From IMG/VR virus record IMGVR_UViG_2541047936_000001: 26,422 nucleotides of DNA; one strand, given 5' to 3'. Both the position numbers and the translations under genes were made by a program. The notes under the pieces were generated by a model that was not told the origin of the DNA, ran no database searches, and was given only the letters and a program-made list of their open reading frames with translations. Shown in pieces: positions 10,479-17,600 of the stretch. The stretch is from a virus. Lineage: Duplodnaviria > Heunggongvirae > Uroviricota > Caudoviricetes. Position 1 is the stretch's first letter. Every line of letters begins with the position of its first letter.

Positions 10479-10678
10479 TGAGATTAAAGTTTATTAGTTC
10501 AGATATTGATTGGCTCTTTTGTGGAGTAGGGTAGAGTTAGTGTGTTTGTCTGCTTGGTGCCAGCAGCGGATATGTTTAACAACAGAAAGCATTCAGCATG
10601 GTTAGTGGATTTGCAAAGTGGATTAGGATTTGAGAAACTTTGATGAAGTTGTAAAGCTTGTTTCTATAAAAATAGAAA

Positions 10679-10695
10679 TTTAACTAATAGTTAAA
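10679..10695. promoter_or_regulatory. Perfect 17-bp palindrome TTTAACTA-A-TAGTTAAA, 36 bp upstream of the 299-aa gene; candidate operator
   Basis: Read directly. Confidence 0.35.
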
Positions 10696-10730
10696 CACAC
10701 CTCCAGCTTCATTGAAAAGGATTATTAGCT

Positions 10731-11630
10731 ATGATTGATCCACTTATTAGAAACTTACAGAGTGATATTGCACTACTCCAGCTTTATATCGCGCAACGCA
10801 AACAGGCAGGCTTTCATGACATGGAAAGAATAATTGAGTCATTGACCATCTTTATGTTTCGCGCGCTGAAAATGGGTGAACTGGTAAACATGAATCAGAT
10901 TAAAGTTAATTTTCCCGCCATTGATTTAGCTGATAATAAAAACATGATAGCAGTTCAAGTTACTACGAATGCAAGTCCAGCAAAAATTAAAAAAACTATC
11001 GAATCTTTTGAGAAAATAAATGAAATAGGAGAGAGTCTGAAAGATAAATACTCTACTTTATATATTTTTGGTTTTTGTAAAGCCTCAAGATACCTAACTC
11101 CAAGTTATTGTAAAATAATCGACCCCAGCTATTTCGTGAATGAACTTTGCGATAAAGCAGATGAAGATATGGTCCAGGATATGATTGACGCCATTCGACG
11201 CCATCATGATTATACATCATTACATCCATGGAGTGATAAAGATTCACTCGAAATTATACTCAATATTATTAATCGCAATGCAATAAAACATCGGATGAGT
11301 TGCGAAGGCAGTCTGTCTGATATGCTCACTGGTTTAAAAGAAATTAATGAAGTAATTACAAAAGGAACAATTCAACGTAAGCAACGTTCAAAATCGATAT
11401 CTGACTTCAAAGATCAAAGCATGGTGAAATTTATGAGAGGTGTAATGGATGATTTGTCTGTTATTCAAGCCATAGTGAACAAATCTAAAGTTAACCAAGG
11501 TGATATGGTTTATATAAGCCATGAAGATATGATTAATATTGATAAATTAAAAGCTAAAATAGCAAGTGATTCATCAGAGATTGCAAGGCTAAATAATATT
11601 GATATAACACTAAATGTTGTTGATTTATAA
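10731..11630 (+). CDS. Cargo protein (299 aa), soluble; N-terminal ~125 aa resemble a SMEK-type N-terminal domain of defence-associated proteins; C-terminal ~170 aa unassigned
   Basis: ORF in ~33% GC DNA; motifs NFPAIDLADNKNMIAVQVT...KIKKTIESF; AAGGA Shine-Dalgarno. Confidence 0.7.
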   Translation: MIDPLIRNLQSDIALLQLYIAQRKQAGFHDMERIIESLTIFMFRALKMGELVNMNQIKVNFPAIDLADNKNMIAVQVTTNASPAKIKKTIESFEKINEIGESLKDKYSTLYIFGFCKASRYLTPSYCKIIDPSYFVNELCDKADEDMVQDMIDAIRRHHDYTSLHPWSDKDSLEIILNIINRNAIKHRMSCEGSLSDMLTGLKEINEVITKGTIQRKQRSKSISDFKDQSMVKFMRGVMDDLSVIQAIVNKSKVNQGDMVYISHEDMINIDKLKAKIASDSSEIARLNNIDITLNVVDL

Positions 11631-11944
11631 TTGTCGATTTAGCAAAACAGAGAATGCTTTGAAAGTTTCACCGAGAAATATTTATTGTGAACCTCCTTAT
11701 TGTTTATCGACTTTTACTCTCCGCTCATTGCAGTACTGTCGGAGAAGGCTACTATGTACAAGAAGCAGCTAACATAAGCGAGCATCACTATTGATATTAG
11801 GAAGAGTATATAAAAACTTCATGCTGAACCTTACAAAAGTAGGTAAACCGGCAATGGCCTAAGTGGCAGGGTCATGTTGATCCGGCACTGCCGAGCTAAT
11901 AATTAACAAGCAAATCACTCTTTCTAATAATTTGTTGAAATAAA

Positions 11945-12604
11945 CTAAATATGTATATGTTTACCAACAACCACATATGAACTACCTGCTTTGCTCCATG
12001 ATTTTATTATTTCTAAATTATTATCTGAGCATATTTTACTTACAGTATCCACATCTAATAAACCATAGTAGAAAGCATTGCGAGAGTTTTGGTATATATA
12101 CCCATGCAAATGTTTAATACCGCTCTCGTACCTCTTGAAATAAGAACTTTTGTATTGATTGACAATCAGTGCTTCACCATCACTCTTTAATAATTCTCTA
12201 ATCGCACTGAGGACTTTGTGAATTGTGGATTCACATGGAATTGCGGAAAGCACGTTTGCGCAAAGTATGAAATCATAATGATTTGTTATTTTATCTATAT
12301 TTTCATAAGAAACAATATTAGCATTCTTATAGTTATTTATCACGTAATCTGGAATCGTGGTTTGTACACCTCTGATAATTTGCACTCTTTCTAGTTGTCT
12401 TCTGGAATCTAAAAATGTCACAGTTTCAAATTTATTTACTAATTGTTCTGAATATCTAAGTTTTCCACATCCAAAATCAAGGGCATTGCCATTTTTATTA
12501 GTGCTTTCAATCTGTTTACAGAGATAGTTAGATGGCATAGTGTGCGGTTTCGCTGCATTTTCTGAACGTATGTTTATTCCATTTATTTTGTAATTCAAAA
12601 TCAA
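11945..12604 (-). CDS. Small class I SAM-dependent methyltransferase (TehB/TPMT-like fold); true start probably the second TTG (12598)
   Basis: Motif I ALDFGCGKL, acidic TFLD, YDFILCANVLSAIP, KSDGEALIV; no DPPY/NPPY DNA-MTase motif seen; GAGG 6 nt before second TTG. Confidence 0.75.
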   Translation of the reverse strand: MILNYKINGINIRSENAAKPHTMPSNYLCKQIESTNKNGNALDFGCGKLRYSEQLVNKFETVTFLDSRRQLERVQIIRGVQTTIPDYVINNYKNANIVSYENIDKITNHYDFILCANVLSAIPCESTIHKVLSAIRELLKSDGEALIVNQYKSSYFKRYESGIKHLHGYIYQNSRNAFYYGLLDVDTVSKICSDNNLEIIKSWSKAGSSYVVVGKHIHI

Positions 12605-12610
12605 CCTCGT

Positions 12611-13318
12611 TTAAAAAATATTGTTATTGTTAAAGAATTCTTTTATTTTGCTATCAGGTATTTGTCTTACTTGGCTTTCTGTTCTTGGTTTAACTGATGC
12701 TATGAAAATAAGGAAGTCAAATGCGACAAGAGAAATAATCCACAACCAAAGATTAATTAAAGAGCCAGTAACAGAGAATATATTTGTTAATTTGGCGATA
12801 CTTATTATTAAAATAGTAACAAATGCGATTACTGTATGTTCAAAGAAAACCCAAAAGTAATAAACTTTGTTCCAGAAAAGTTCAACGTAATGTTTGTCTT
12901 TTAACTCTTTAACTTCTGGGTAATACAGTTTACTCATTACCTTGTGAGATTCATCAGTAGTTAATTTTCTCGTAACGCCTGCAATTTTTGCTAATGGTTT
13001 AATAATTAAATGACTATCCCACATCTTCCTTATTCCAATAATTTTTGCTACATTATTATGTAGATCTAAAGCTCCACTAATTACTGACCAAAAAACTGAA
13101 GATGCAATTGGTAATATGCCAAAGGTTAATATCCATTTAATAAATTCCTCGTAGTCTTTAACGGGGGGGATATACTTGGCATTAATGCCAACCAATGGCA
13201 TGTAGCCATAAATGACTAATGATAGGTAAAATATAAATGTAGTAATAAAAGTCGCCTTATGGAGCATAGGCAACATTTCATTATAACTCTTTGGTGGTTC
13301 TAACATTTTACTCTCCAA
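12611..13318 (-). CDS. Integral membrane protein (235 aa, about four predicted TM helices), first gene of the operon with the methyltransferase
   Basis: Hydrophobic stretches TFITTFIFYLSLVIYGYMPLVGI, WILTFGILPIASSVFWSVISGAL, YYFWVFFEHTVIAFVTILIISIA, LINLWLWIISLVAFDFLIFIASV. Confidence 0.7.
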   Translation of the reverse strand: MESKMLEPPKSYNEMLPMLHKATFITTFIFYLSLVIYGYMPLVGINAKYIPPVKDYEEFIKWILTFGILPIASSVFWSVISGALDLHNNVAKIIGIRKMWDSHLIIKPLAKIAGVTRKLTTDESHKVMSKLYYPEVKELKDKHYVELFWNKVYYFWVFFEHTVIAFVTILIISIAKLTNIFSVTGSLINLWLWIISLVAFDFLIFIASVKPRTESQVRQIPDSKIKEFFNNNNIF

Positions 13319-13747
13319 ACACTCAAAAAAAAGCTAATCTTCTATAATAACGAAATTCAGCTGGCACAATTAAAGATTAATTGCCACCAATTTCTTGATT
13401 TTATAATTTTATCTAAATGTTTTTGATTAATCTAGTCCTAAAAGAAACCTACTGCATAAATATTTATGCTGATGACCCACTCCCTGTTCGTTAACACATA
13501 GCAACGTTAGTAATGCATCCTAAGTGATCAATATTTTTGCTAGCTTCATCTGCTCGCTCAAAGGGAACTATAATGTTGGCTTGCGTGTGACTTGGCATGT
13601 TTAAAGAAGTGCTGGTGGTGACTGGTTGCTGTTTTCCATTTCCACAGAACAAAATCATAGAAACTATACCCAGTAGTTGTATTGAATCACTGACGAGACA
13701 GCCTCATATTTATCAGGACTGGTGTACGTCCAATACAGGAGGTTGTG

Positions 13748-13837: not shown

Positions 13838-14048
13838 TTTCATATTGGCGAGGTAACGGTAGTTAAGTAGAATTGCTGCGGGTGCTTGAGGCTATCTGCC
13901 TCGGGCATCAACACCAAAGGCAGATAGAGAAAAGCCCCAGTTAACATTACGCGTCCGGCAAGACGCTTAACATTAATCTGAGGCCATATCTATGCTCTAC
14001 ACACGTAGGTTAGCCTCTTACGTGCCGAAAGGCAAGGAGAAGCAGGCT

Positions 14049-14204
14049 ATGAAGCAGCAAAAGGCGATGTTAATCGCCCTGATCGTCATCTGTTTAACCG
14101 TCATAGTGACGGCACTGGTAACGAGGAAAGACCTCTGCGAGGTACGAATCCGAACCGGCCAGACGGAGGTCGCTGTCTTCACAGCTTACGAATCTGAGGA
14201 GTAA
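14049..14204 (+). CDS. hokD: Hok-family type I toxin (51 aa), HokD/RelF-like
   Basis: MKQQKAMLIALIVICLTVIVTALVTRKDLCEVRIRTGQTEVAVFTAYESEE; AGGAGA Shine-Dalgarno at 14035-14040. Confidence 0.85.
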   Translation: MKQQKAMLIALIVICLTVIVTALVTRKDLCEVRIRTGQTEVAVFTAYESEE

Positions 14205-15031: not shown

Positions 15032-16082
15032 GTGCGGGTATTACTTCGACCTGTTCCGGTACCGGAACTTGGGCTGGTGGTCCTTAAGCCGGGCCGTGAA
15101 TCCATGCAGGTATTTCATAACCCTCGAGTGCTGGTGGAGCCGGAACCAAAAAGCATGCGCGGTCTGCCGTCCGGAGTCGTTCCTGCCGTTCGCCAGCCGC
15201 TGGCGGAGGATAAATCATTACTGCCATTTTTCAGCGATGAGCGGGTGATTCGTGCTGCTGGCGGCGCTGGTGCACTGTCTGACTGGCTGTTGCGTCATGT
15301 CAAATCCTGCCAGTGGCCTCATGGTGACTATCATCACAGTGAAACCGTCATACATCGTTACGGTACCGGCGCGATGGTGTTGTGCTGGCACTGCGACAAC
15401 CAGCTGCGTGACCAGACCTCTGAATCACTCGGGCAACTTGCTCATCAAAACCTGTCAGCATGGATGATTGACGTCATACGCCATGCAATGAATGGCACAC
15501 AGGAGCGGGAATTATCTCTGGCTGAATTATCCTGGTGGGCGGTCCGCAATCAGGTGGCGGACGCGCTACCGGAAGCTGTATTACGTCGTTCACTGGGGTT
15601 GCGTGCGGAAAAAAATCCGCTCCTTGTACCGCGAAAGCGACATCGTACCGGGAGAGCAGACCGCCACCAGCATACTGAAGCAGCGCACAAAAAATCTTGC
15701 GCCGTTGCTTCACACCCACCAGCCACAGAACCCAGCACAGGAAAAGGCGGTGGTCAGCATTACCGTTGATCCGGAGTCTCCGGAATCTTTCATGAGGCGA
15801 CCTAAACGTCGCCGTTGGGTAAATGAGAAATATACGAGCTGGGTGAAGACACAGCCGTGTGCGTGTTGTGGTCAGCCAGCCGACGATCCCCATCACCTGA
15901 TTGGTCACGGTCAGGGAGGGATGGGAACAAAATCCCACGATATTTTCACGCTACCGCTGTGTCGGGAGCATCACAACGAGCTTCATGCGGATCCGCTGGC
16001 GTTCGAAGAAAAGCATGGTTCCCAGATTGATTTAATTTTTCGTTTTCTTGATCACGCCTTTGCAACCGGCGTGCTCGGGTAA
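15032..16082 (+). pseudogene. DUF968-family (YdfU-like) nin-region gene split across two frames by a shift in an A7 run (15609-15615)
   Basis: ORFs 15032..15769 and 15492..16082 overlap in different frames; together ~350 codons; C-terminal HNH-like motif CACCGQPADDPHHLIGHGQGG...CREHHNELH. Confidence 0.6.
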
Positions 16083-17350: not shown

Positions 17351-17426
17351 GGCCCTTTAGCTCAGTGGTGAGAGCGAGCGACTCATAATCGCCAGGCCGC
17401 TGGTTCAAATCCAGCAAGGGCCACCA
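17351..17426 (+). tRNA. tRNA with CAU anticodon (Ile2/ileZ-like, or Met)
   Basis: GGCCCTTTAGCTCAGTGGTGAGAGC...anticodon loop CUCAUAA...TTCAAATCC...CCA. Confidence 0.8.
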
Positions 17427-17433
17427 TCACATA

Positions 17434-17510
17434 CCGCCATTAGCTCATCGGGATAGAACGCCAGCCTTCGAAGCTGGTTTCGCGGGGTTCGAGTCTCCGA
17501 TGGCGGTCCA
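17434..17510 (+). tRNA. tRNA-Arg, anticodon UCG
   Basis: Cloverleaf with anticodon loop CUUCGAA; acceptor CCGCCAT/ATGGCGG; CCA end. Confidence 0.75.
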
Positions 17511-17523
17511 TTATCGGTATTCT

Positions 17524-17600
17524 GCGTTTTTAGCTCAGCCGGACAGAGCAATTGCCTTCTAAGCAATCGGTCACTGGTTCGAACCCAGTACAACGCACCA
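17524..17600 (+). tRNA. tRNA-Arg, anticodon UCU
   Basis: Cloverleaf with anticodon loop CUUCUAA; CCA end. Confidence 0.75.

Follow-up and report, generated by a model that had tools for sequence, protein, structure and literature searches.

A stand-alone SMEK-domain protein with a family-specific helical bundle, carried by a lambdoid prophage of Escherichia coli

Introduction

The 26,422-nucleotide stretch of DNA considered here (IMG/VR record IMGVR_UViG_2541047936_000001, in the following called the window) is a Qin/lambdoid-type prophage of Escherichia coli, integrated beside tRNA-Ser and mtfA. Among its genes is one for a protein of 299 amino acids (Table 1), in the following called the SMEK gene, which already bears the RefSeq/PGAP name 'SMEK domain-containing protein'. 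This label is silent on half of the protein, and SMEK is otherwise known only from studies of short bacterial Argonaute systems, in which it is the killing module. The question raised by this locus is what such a domain does in a prophage gene that stands alone, and what the other half of the protein adds to it. As described below, the protein couples a SMEK_N domain to a four-helix bundle of its own family, and the gene moves as a single unit together with a short leader. The explanation which we prefer, although only tentatively, is that the prophage carries as cargo the gene of a defence nuclease which acts on its own, as a single polypeptide.

Table 1. Positions of the SMEK gene, the parts of its protein and the adjoining features in the window
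Feature	Position	Strand	Remarks
Conserved leader of ~180 bp	10545..10730	+	travels with the open reading frame; blastn homology
SMEK-domain protein gene	10731..11630	+	ATG start, 299 amino acids plus stop; RefSeq WP_000566848.1
SMEK_N / Mrr-like PD-(D/E)xK-type nuclease domain (predicted)	10731..11180	+	residues 1-150
Putative active-site constellation	E36 10836-10838, D65 10923-10925, Q76 10956-10958, T78 10962-10964, K85 10983-10985	+	presumed to be catalytic
Interdomain linker	11181..11228	+	residues 151-166; low confidence at 159-166
Family-specific four-helix bundle	11229..11627	+	residues 167-299; helices 169-182, 195-210, 229-251, 264-287
ymfD-like class I S-adenosylmethionine-dependent methyltransferase	11945..12604	-	convergent with the SMEK gene; Pfam Methyltransf_12/23, 219 amino acids
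ymfE-like membrane protein	12611..13318	-	operon with the methyltransferase; ymfE homology
Low-GC cargo island	10552..13472	.	guanine-cytosine (GC) content 0.30-0.36 versus ~0.5 in the flanks

The gene and its conservation

The open reading frame (ORF) represents a genuine gene rather than a chance occurrence, because full-length homologs form 108 clusters (~293-301 amino acids, identity to ~42%, plus one at 31%), the ratio of nonsynonymous to synonymous substitutions (dN/dS) amounts to 0.09-0.34 over both halves, a Shine-Dalgarno sequence is present and PGAP annotates the gene. In pairwise comparison to nine homologs, codons 1-150 showed a dN/dS of 0.13-0.34 and codons 151-299 a dN/dS of 0.09-0.23; purifying selection acts on both halves of the protein. 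The Shine-Dalgarno sequence AAGGA (10717-10721) lies 9 nt 5' of the start. The opposite strand of the gene is stop-rich and holds no competing long ORF, and Rfam gave no RNA element within or beside the gene. An earlier note on this stretch had reported the ORF of 299 amino acids together with three motifs, all of which are found in the translation: NFPAIDLADNKNMIAVQVT comprises residues 60-78, KIKKTIESF residues 85-93 and RRHHDYTSLHPWSDKD residues 156-171.

The gene is present in 152 of 5,426 complete E. coli genomes, in 146 of these at an identity of at least 99%, and 24 viral contigs of IMG/VR carry it. Its relatives span Gamma- and Betaproteobacteria and beyond. Among the phage records of INPHARED the gene was found in none, and the only trace is a weak N-terminal match in Klebsiella phage ST15-OXA48phi14.1, where an ORF truncated at the end of the record (positions 5-271) shows 35% identity to SMEK residues 5-93. 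This ORF, labelled 'similar to regulator of acetyl CoA synthetase', probably encodes a SMEK_N protein that bears an outdated and wrong name.

The N-terminal domain

The profile matches place the protein firmly within the SMEK_N domain family. The Pfam model SMEK_N (PF21941) matches residues 10-120 with E=2.2e-22 (79.9 bits versus a cut-off of 27), and the NCBIfam model SMEK_N (NF033859) matches residues 5-95 with E=1.3e-30 (105.1 bits versus a cut-off of 30). The Argonaute-associated PADLOC model Aga_REase-PNTD1-PNTD2 aligns to residues 8-146 (E=1.4e-20), and this alignment covers the restriction endonuclease (REase) part alone, namely profile positions 9-143 of 463. The sole relative with a solved structure, found with the family profile, is the Mrr domain of the Mrr-APAZ short prokaryotic Argonaute (pAgo) system of Kordia jejudonensis (PDB 26bh; 26bh_D, matched by residues 20-139 of the SMEK protein), with E=5e-13 for the full-length profile and E=1e-13 for the N-terminal profile. 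The earlier note had proposed a resemblance to SMEK-type N-termini, to be given up if no SMEK profile matched significantly. The four matches bear this resemblance out, and the two SMEK_N profiles score above their curated cut-offs. Only the extent had to be corrected: the note had assigned ~125 residues to this part, while the PADLOC match and the structural model place the boundary at ~150.

Residues E36, N60, D65, Q76, T78, K85 and T89 are identical in 26bh_D, and all seven are invariant in the family. Among them, E36, D65, Q76, T78 and K85 were invariant in 48 family members and also in distant ones at 17-24% identity, and these five form the putative active-site constellation. The AlphaFold model of the protein (mean predicted local distance difference test (pLDDT) of 85) comprises a helix and a second helix, followed by strands and helices in the order beta66-68, beta73-81, alpha83-94 and beta109-118. 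As modelled, this order would fit a PD-(D/E)xK core, with E36 on a helix, D65 and Q76-V-T78 on strands, K85 on a helix and a further strand after it.

In the literature, SMEK is described as a Mrr-like PD-(D/E)xK nuclease effector which is fused to APAZ in the short-pAgo systems of clade S2B. The complex of the Kordia system, KjAgo, was reported with weak collateral DNase activity, and the nuclease named as nearest to SMEK by homology is AspBHI, a modification-dependent enzyme. For related short-pAgo nuclease effectors, activation by the assembly of filaments or oligomers was described.

The C-terminal bundle

In the C-terminal half the earlier note had recognised no motif, and the searches agree with this. 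Scans of the whole protein with Pfam, NCBIfam, PADLOC and PHROGs gave no match to this part, and a profile of the bundle returned from the sequences of the PDB noise alone (e.g. coiled-coil spike constructs and an exopolyphosphatase, with E of at least 0.02). The bundle of ~135 residues folds confidently in the prediction (pLDDT 86.5, predicted template modelling score 0.79) and comprises a short basic beta-hairpin loop at residues 211-228. Searches with this structure returned generic or designed helical bundles only and no specific structural match. Residues D169, R182, A184, E192, G212 and K221 of the bundle are invariant family-wide.

An exhaustive HMMER search with the C-terminal profile in 1.84 billion representative proteins gave 90 clusters. 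Nearly all of these are either fragments or proteins of ~290-320 amino acids in which the bundle occupies about 145-300. The 10 most distant clusters tested all carry SMEK_N with E values of 1e-34 to 1e-41. Since the bundle was found only behind SMEK_N among the searched representatives, it is private to the architecture of SMEK_N plus bundle. Word-indexed searches for homologs with half-protein profiles returned short or same-family proteins only; these searches were apparently length-limited, with other SMEK_N architectures outside their scope.

A universal metal site in this region, formed by H158, H165, H187 and C191, was considered and rejected, since these residues are unconserved in the distant subfamily. 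The histidines of the RRHHDY...HP pattern are kept only in the close subfamily, and the same holds true for H158 and H165-P166 of the linker.

Mobile unit and genomic contexts

In loci which share only the SMEK gene with the window, nucleotide homology spans only ~10545 to 11620-11633 and stops at the stop codon. For such loci of Pectobacterium, Enterobacter and E. coli EC05, the homology determined by blastn starts at 10542-10552. The mobile unit is the SMEK ORF together with its conserved 180-bp leader. Conserved blocks are visible in the alignment of the leader, and it contains the promoter-like elements TTGATG (10640-10645) and TATAAA (10665-10670) at a spacing of N17-19, which, from their sequence, may constitute the promoter of the gene. 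A promoter and terminator scan combined with a search for inverted repeats detected neither a clear promoter ahead of the gene nor a terminator in the region that separates the convergent genes.

In Vibrio parahaemolyticus, the homolog forms a cassette of its own within a chromosomal integron array, and two attC-like repeats (L056, 3767-3896 and 4861-4984) enclose the SMEK gene alone. The array (L056, 1-11856) comprises 15 attC-like repeats, and further cassettes encode SduA_C (Shedu-like), HNH, FRG and DUF4160 proteins, so that it represents a small store of candidate defence cassettes.

In the window, the gene lies in a low-GC island which is co-inherited at 83-87% nucleotide identity in other lambdoid prophages. 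A 3.1-kb query which also covers the end of the DUF977 gene matched 593 E. coli genomes, while the island itself is present in the 152 of 5,426 genomes mentioned above. The low GC content and this pattern of presence and absence support the view that the SMEK gene is cargo in an accessory slot of the prophage, the term which the earlier note had used.

Across ~20 other contexts, no conserved partner gene was found. These contexts include CBASS, Gabija and Lamassu neighbourhoods, integrative and conjugative elements (ICEs), a P2-like phage and the integron cassette, and the neighbours are rich in defence or conflict genes. Observed were LmuB_C and AAA_15/21 (on either side of the homolog in Citrobacter), a Gabija-like pair of OLD-TOPRIM and UvrD (together with H-NS and PIN_4 in Xanthomonas), SMODS and S_4TM (adjoining in Pectobacterium), Abi_alpha (adjoining in Vibrio cyclitrophicus), AbiGi (on a Yersinia element with a type IV secretion system (T4SS)), SduA_C, SLATT_5 (in an integrase island of Pseudomonas), a reverse transcriptase (adjoining in Advenella), an HNH nuclease (adjoining in an epsilonproteobacterium) and SymE. 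In Enterobacter and Cupriavidus, the homolog adjoins SymE or TacA or lies in integrase islands. The neighbours are also rich in genes of mobile elements, namely integrases, relaxases, T4SS genes and P2-like tail genes. Accompanying examples are Pseudoduganella, where the homolog follows a TrwC relaxase, Chromobacterium, where it lies on a mobilisable element with a relaxase and Fic, and a P2-like viral contig, where it follows gpU and adjoins a DUF4062 protein. In Variovorax it is a lone insertion amid housekeeping genes.

In Pseudomonas (L002, 6958-9736), a protein of 219 amino acids without a Pfam match, SLATT_5 and a protein of 309 amino acids are encoded downstream on the same strand, an arrangement found on three contigs, and these genes may form a separate SLATT-based system. 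The possibility that the 219-residue protein and SLATT_5 correspond to the methyltransferase and the membrane protein of the window was rejected, as they are unrelated.

Comparison with known systems

The closest known systems are the SMEK-APAZ or Mrr-APAZ short-pAgo systems (clade S2B, 'SPARMA', e.g. KjAgo). The N-terminal nuclease domain is homologous and shares the string NFPAIDLAD...QxT...K..T, and the logic is probably the same, with the nuclease effector at the N-terminus and a regulatory part behind it. However, SMEK-APAZ proteins possess their own APAZ, whereas the PADLOC alignment ends here at position 143 of 463 and a helical bundle of 135 residues follows instead. Furthermore, SMEK-APAZ genes are adjacent to a short Argonaute (MID-PIWI), while no Argonaute gene or APAZ protein was found in the annotated prophage or in the examined neighbourhoods, and the protein of ~300 amino acids is encoded by a single gene. 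Since the tests for APAZ and pAgo were both negative, the protein stands outside the SMEK-APAZ/short-pAgo systems. SPARDA (DREN-APAZ and short pAgo) and SPARHA (HNH-APAZ and short pAgo) follow the same concept of a silent nuclease that is switched by a sensor, with activation by filaments or oligomers and abortive infection as the outcome. They differ in their nucleases (Hjc-like DREN or HNH) and in the sensing of guide RNA and target DNA by pAgo, and no such sensor is present here.

Classical restriction-modification systems comprise a conserved cognate DNA methyltransferase. Here there is none, and the neighbouring methyltransferase is absent from most SMEK loci; the protein is not a classical restriction-modification system. 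A parallel is also offered by the single-gene exclusion or abortive-infection genes in accessory slots of prophages, such as the gene of Lit in prophage e14. As there, the SMEK gene is an autonomous low-GC cargo unit in a cryptic lambdoid prophage, next to ymfD/ymfE. However, Lit is a peptidase and unrelated to the nuclease-type SMEK protein, and the two genes flank ymfD/ymfE on different sides.

Possible function

Taken as an autonomous defence nuclease, the protein would work as follows. The SMEK domain (residues 1-150) would be a metal-dependent DNA nuclease, and the bundle (residues 167-299) would stand in for APAZ and Argonaute as the controlling module. In the lysogen the bundle presumably keeps the nuclease silent. 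In response to a cue from the infection it would then permit cutting, most likely via dimerisation or oligomerisation of the nuclease domain, and the resulting indiscriminate DNA cleavage would lead to abortive infection of the superinfecting phage. Abortive infection driven by oligomerisation is proposed because of the analogy with the filaments of SPARDA and SPARHA. While the domain identities, the conserved residues that resemble an active site, the occurrence of the bundle behind SMEK_N only, the purifying selection on both domains, the lack of a conserved partner gene, the mobility as a single gene with its leader and the defence-rich context are observations, the nuclease activity, the trigger, the oligomerisation and the defence phenotype are what these observations suggest, and we regard the explanation as a whole as quite possible, somewhat short of an even chance.

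Several points weigh against it. The canonical lysine of the (E/Q)xK motif is replaced by threonine (Q76-V-T78) family-wide, as in the Kordia domain, and with T78 in this place catalysis would need K85 or another residue. In the Pfam scan of the protein Mrr_cat was unmatched at E<=1, and Foldseek against the PDB gave a best E of 0.14 and no match at E<=0.001, with EcoT38I and BglII surfacing only at E of 0.5-2, which leaves the restriction-endonuclease fold without independent confirmation. PADLOC-DB v2.0 gave no full-length match, and only Argonaute-associated REase models match, on the N-terminal domain only. The bundle evolves as slowly as the nuclease domain, unlike sensors in an arms race with phages. 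The evidence from defence neighbourhoods is qualitative and comes without an enrichment statistic, and literature searches for SMEK proteins that stand alone, for the RefSeq accession and for the model accessions turned up no relevant paper and hence no experiment on any such protein. In addition, the host prophage is decaying, and the gene itself is frameshifted in some E. coli genomes. In the genomes H35, H36 and H46 the match is one base short (899 of 900), and the annotation divides the gene into two parts ('hypothetical protein | SMEK domain-containing protein'); such frameshifted copies are probably inactivated.

A more specific proposal, which we hold with less confidence, is that SMEK plus bundle represents an unrecognised single-gene abortive-infection system, in which the bundle would sense a conserved infection signal and activate the Mrr-like nuclease by self-assembly. 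Candidate signals would be a nucleic-acid structure, a nucleotide or the perturbation of a host process. If this speculative proposal were true, the protein would be related to the SMEK effector modules of short-pAgo systems but independent of Argonaute, and might even represent their precursor. More generally, should the protein prove to be an active defence nuclease, it would constitute a compact one-gene system (0.9 kb plus the 0.18-kb leader) present in ~3% of complete E. coli genomes. It would mean that control over the SMEK/Mrr-like effector known from short Argonaute systems can lie with a wholly different and much smaller sensor, and it would offer a tractable model for the silencing and release of a PD-(D/E)xK nuclease with a non-canonical QxT site. 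Annotation at the domain level already exists, and the locus appears best filed as a known nuclease effector with a private, presumably regulatory domain and without Argonaute, which is the new aspect. Single-gene nuclease candidates are common in defence islands, and nothing found here contradicts current understanding.

Among the other explanations, the main one, which we consider unlikely, is a Type IV-like modification-dependent restriction endonuclease, in which the bundle would read DNA or a modified base and the enzyme would cut modified phage DNA without killing the cell; the bundle would then be a new kind of DNA-modification reader. Like the Mrr-family Type IV enzymes (E. coli Mrr and the MspJI/AspBHI group), which have a Mrr-like catalytic domain according to the literature, the protein has a Mrr-like nuclease domain with AspBHI as the closest homolog named, and its gene stands alone with no DNA methyltransferase conserved alongside, as expected of Type IV. 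The slowly evolving bundle with its invariant basic loop (G212, K221) could also contact DNA. On the other hand, Pfam gave no match to Mrr_cat, Mrr_N, SRA or a known reader domain, the motif is QxT and not QxK, and the nuclease domain is placed N-terminally rather than C-terminally. Known readers of modified DNA are winged-helix or SRA-like folds, which counts against this explanation, as the protein has a helical bundle in place of either, and one that resembles generic or designed bundles alone. Somewhat less probable again is a role in the service of the mobile element, either as an addiction-type toxin with an inhibitor in cis or as a nuclease for the processing of phage or ICE DNA or for competition between elements. 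This would account for the observation that the gene is always found on mobile elements (prophages, ICEs and mobilisable elements with relaxases, integrons, integrase islands) and often adjoins toxin-antitoxin genes (SymE, TacA, hok/sok), but defence genes show the same distribution and no antitoxin-like partner is conserved. Moreover, the position of the gene varies with respect to the genes for replication, recombination and packaging, and it occurs on widely different types of element, which makes a conserved role in their life cycle unlikely.

The island of the window could also suggest that the SMEK nuclease, the ymfD-like methyltransferase and the ymfE-like membrane protein act as one functional three-gene cassette, for which we see little chance. 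The three genes form a co-inherited block of 2.9 kb (10552-13472), which shows a similar divergence (81-91% identity at the amino acid level) in at least three lambdoid prophage backgrounds with different replication modules, and 151 of the 152 SMEK-carrying E. coli genomes hold at least 80% of the 3.1-kb query over all three genes. However, the ymfD/ymfE pair occurs without SMEK in 283 E. coli genomes, e.g. in e14 of K-12, and SMEK homologs at 77-83% identity as well as all more distant ones lack the pair, one of them being the single-gene integron cassette. The SMEK and ymfD/ymfE genes are convergent and hence not one operon, and in Pfam the methyltransferase matches only small-molecule or generic class I families and no DNA-methyltransferase family. 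The SMEK gene and the ymfD/ymfE pair are separable modules. Least probable of all, in our estimation, is a catalytically dead SMEK domain in a protein that acts as a DNA-binding regulator. The replacement of the canonical lysine by T78 in every member would fit this, and legacy names such as 'regulator' or 'similar to regulator of acetyl CoA synthetase' point in the same direction. These names carry no evidence, though, while the Kordia SMEK domain has the same QxT motif in a complex with reported nuclease activity, and the invariant E36, D65, Q76 and K85 are hard to explain without chemistry at this site.

Neighbouring genes and the prophage

The methyltransferase and membrane protein genes of the island show 69% nucleotide identity (98% of the query) to ymfD-ymfE of prophage e14, and the ymfE-like protein gave no match in Pfam, PADLOC or PHROGs. 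In e14 of K-12 the pair adjoins the gene of the abortive-infection peptidase Lit. Two different prophages therefore pair a two-gene module of the ymfD/ymfE type with a defence gene, known in one case and a candidate in the other.

The left part of the prophage comprises, in this order, the integrase, an exonuclease, dicB/DicF, dicA/dicC, a ydaT-like gene, a replication-region protein and DUF977, followed by the island. After the island come hok/sok, DUF968, RusA, Q, tRNAs, lysis genes and the terminase. Compared to strain MEI003, the window contains an insertion of ~1.31 kb at ~1878-3190, with ORFs of 108 (1932..2258) and 296 amino acids (2255..3145) and an Rfam match to the ALIL frameshift pseudoknot at 2213-2329. 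The insertion is an IS3-family element that interrupts the integrase region, and we take it to resemble IS629 by its size and ORFs. The DUF968 (HNH-like) gene at 15032-16082 contains a +1 frameshift due to an extra A at ~15609, while it is intact with 349 amino acids in MEI003; the split gene is either a frameshifted pseudogene or the result of a homopolymer sequencing error.

Directly right of the island, a hok/sok type I toxin-antitoxin locus was found at 13880-14204, with the Rfam match to sok at 13880-14054 and hokD, assigned by annotation transfer, just downstream. The antisense small RNA DicF lies in the dicB region at 6749-6800 on the minus strand. Three tRNAs (Ile, Arg, Arg; annotation transfer) are encoded on the plus strand at 17351-17597, downstream of the Q antiterminator, and a match to the small RNA STnc100 is located at 18371-18543 on the same strand, upstream of a SASA esterase gene.

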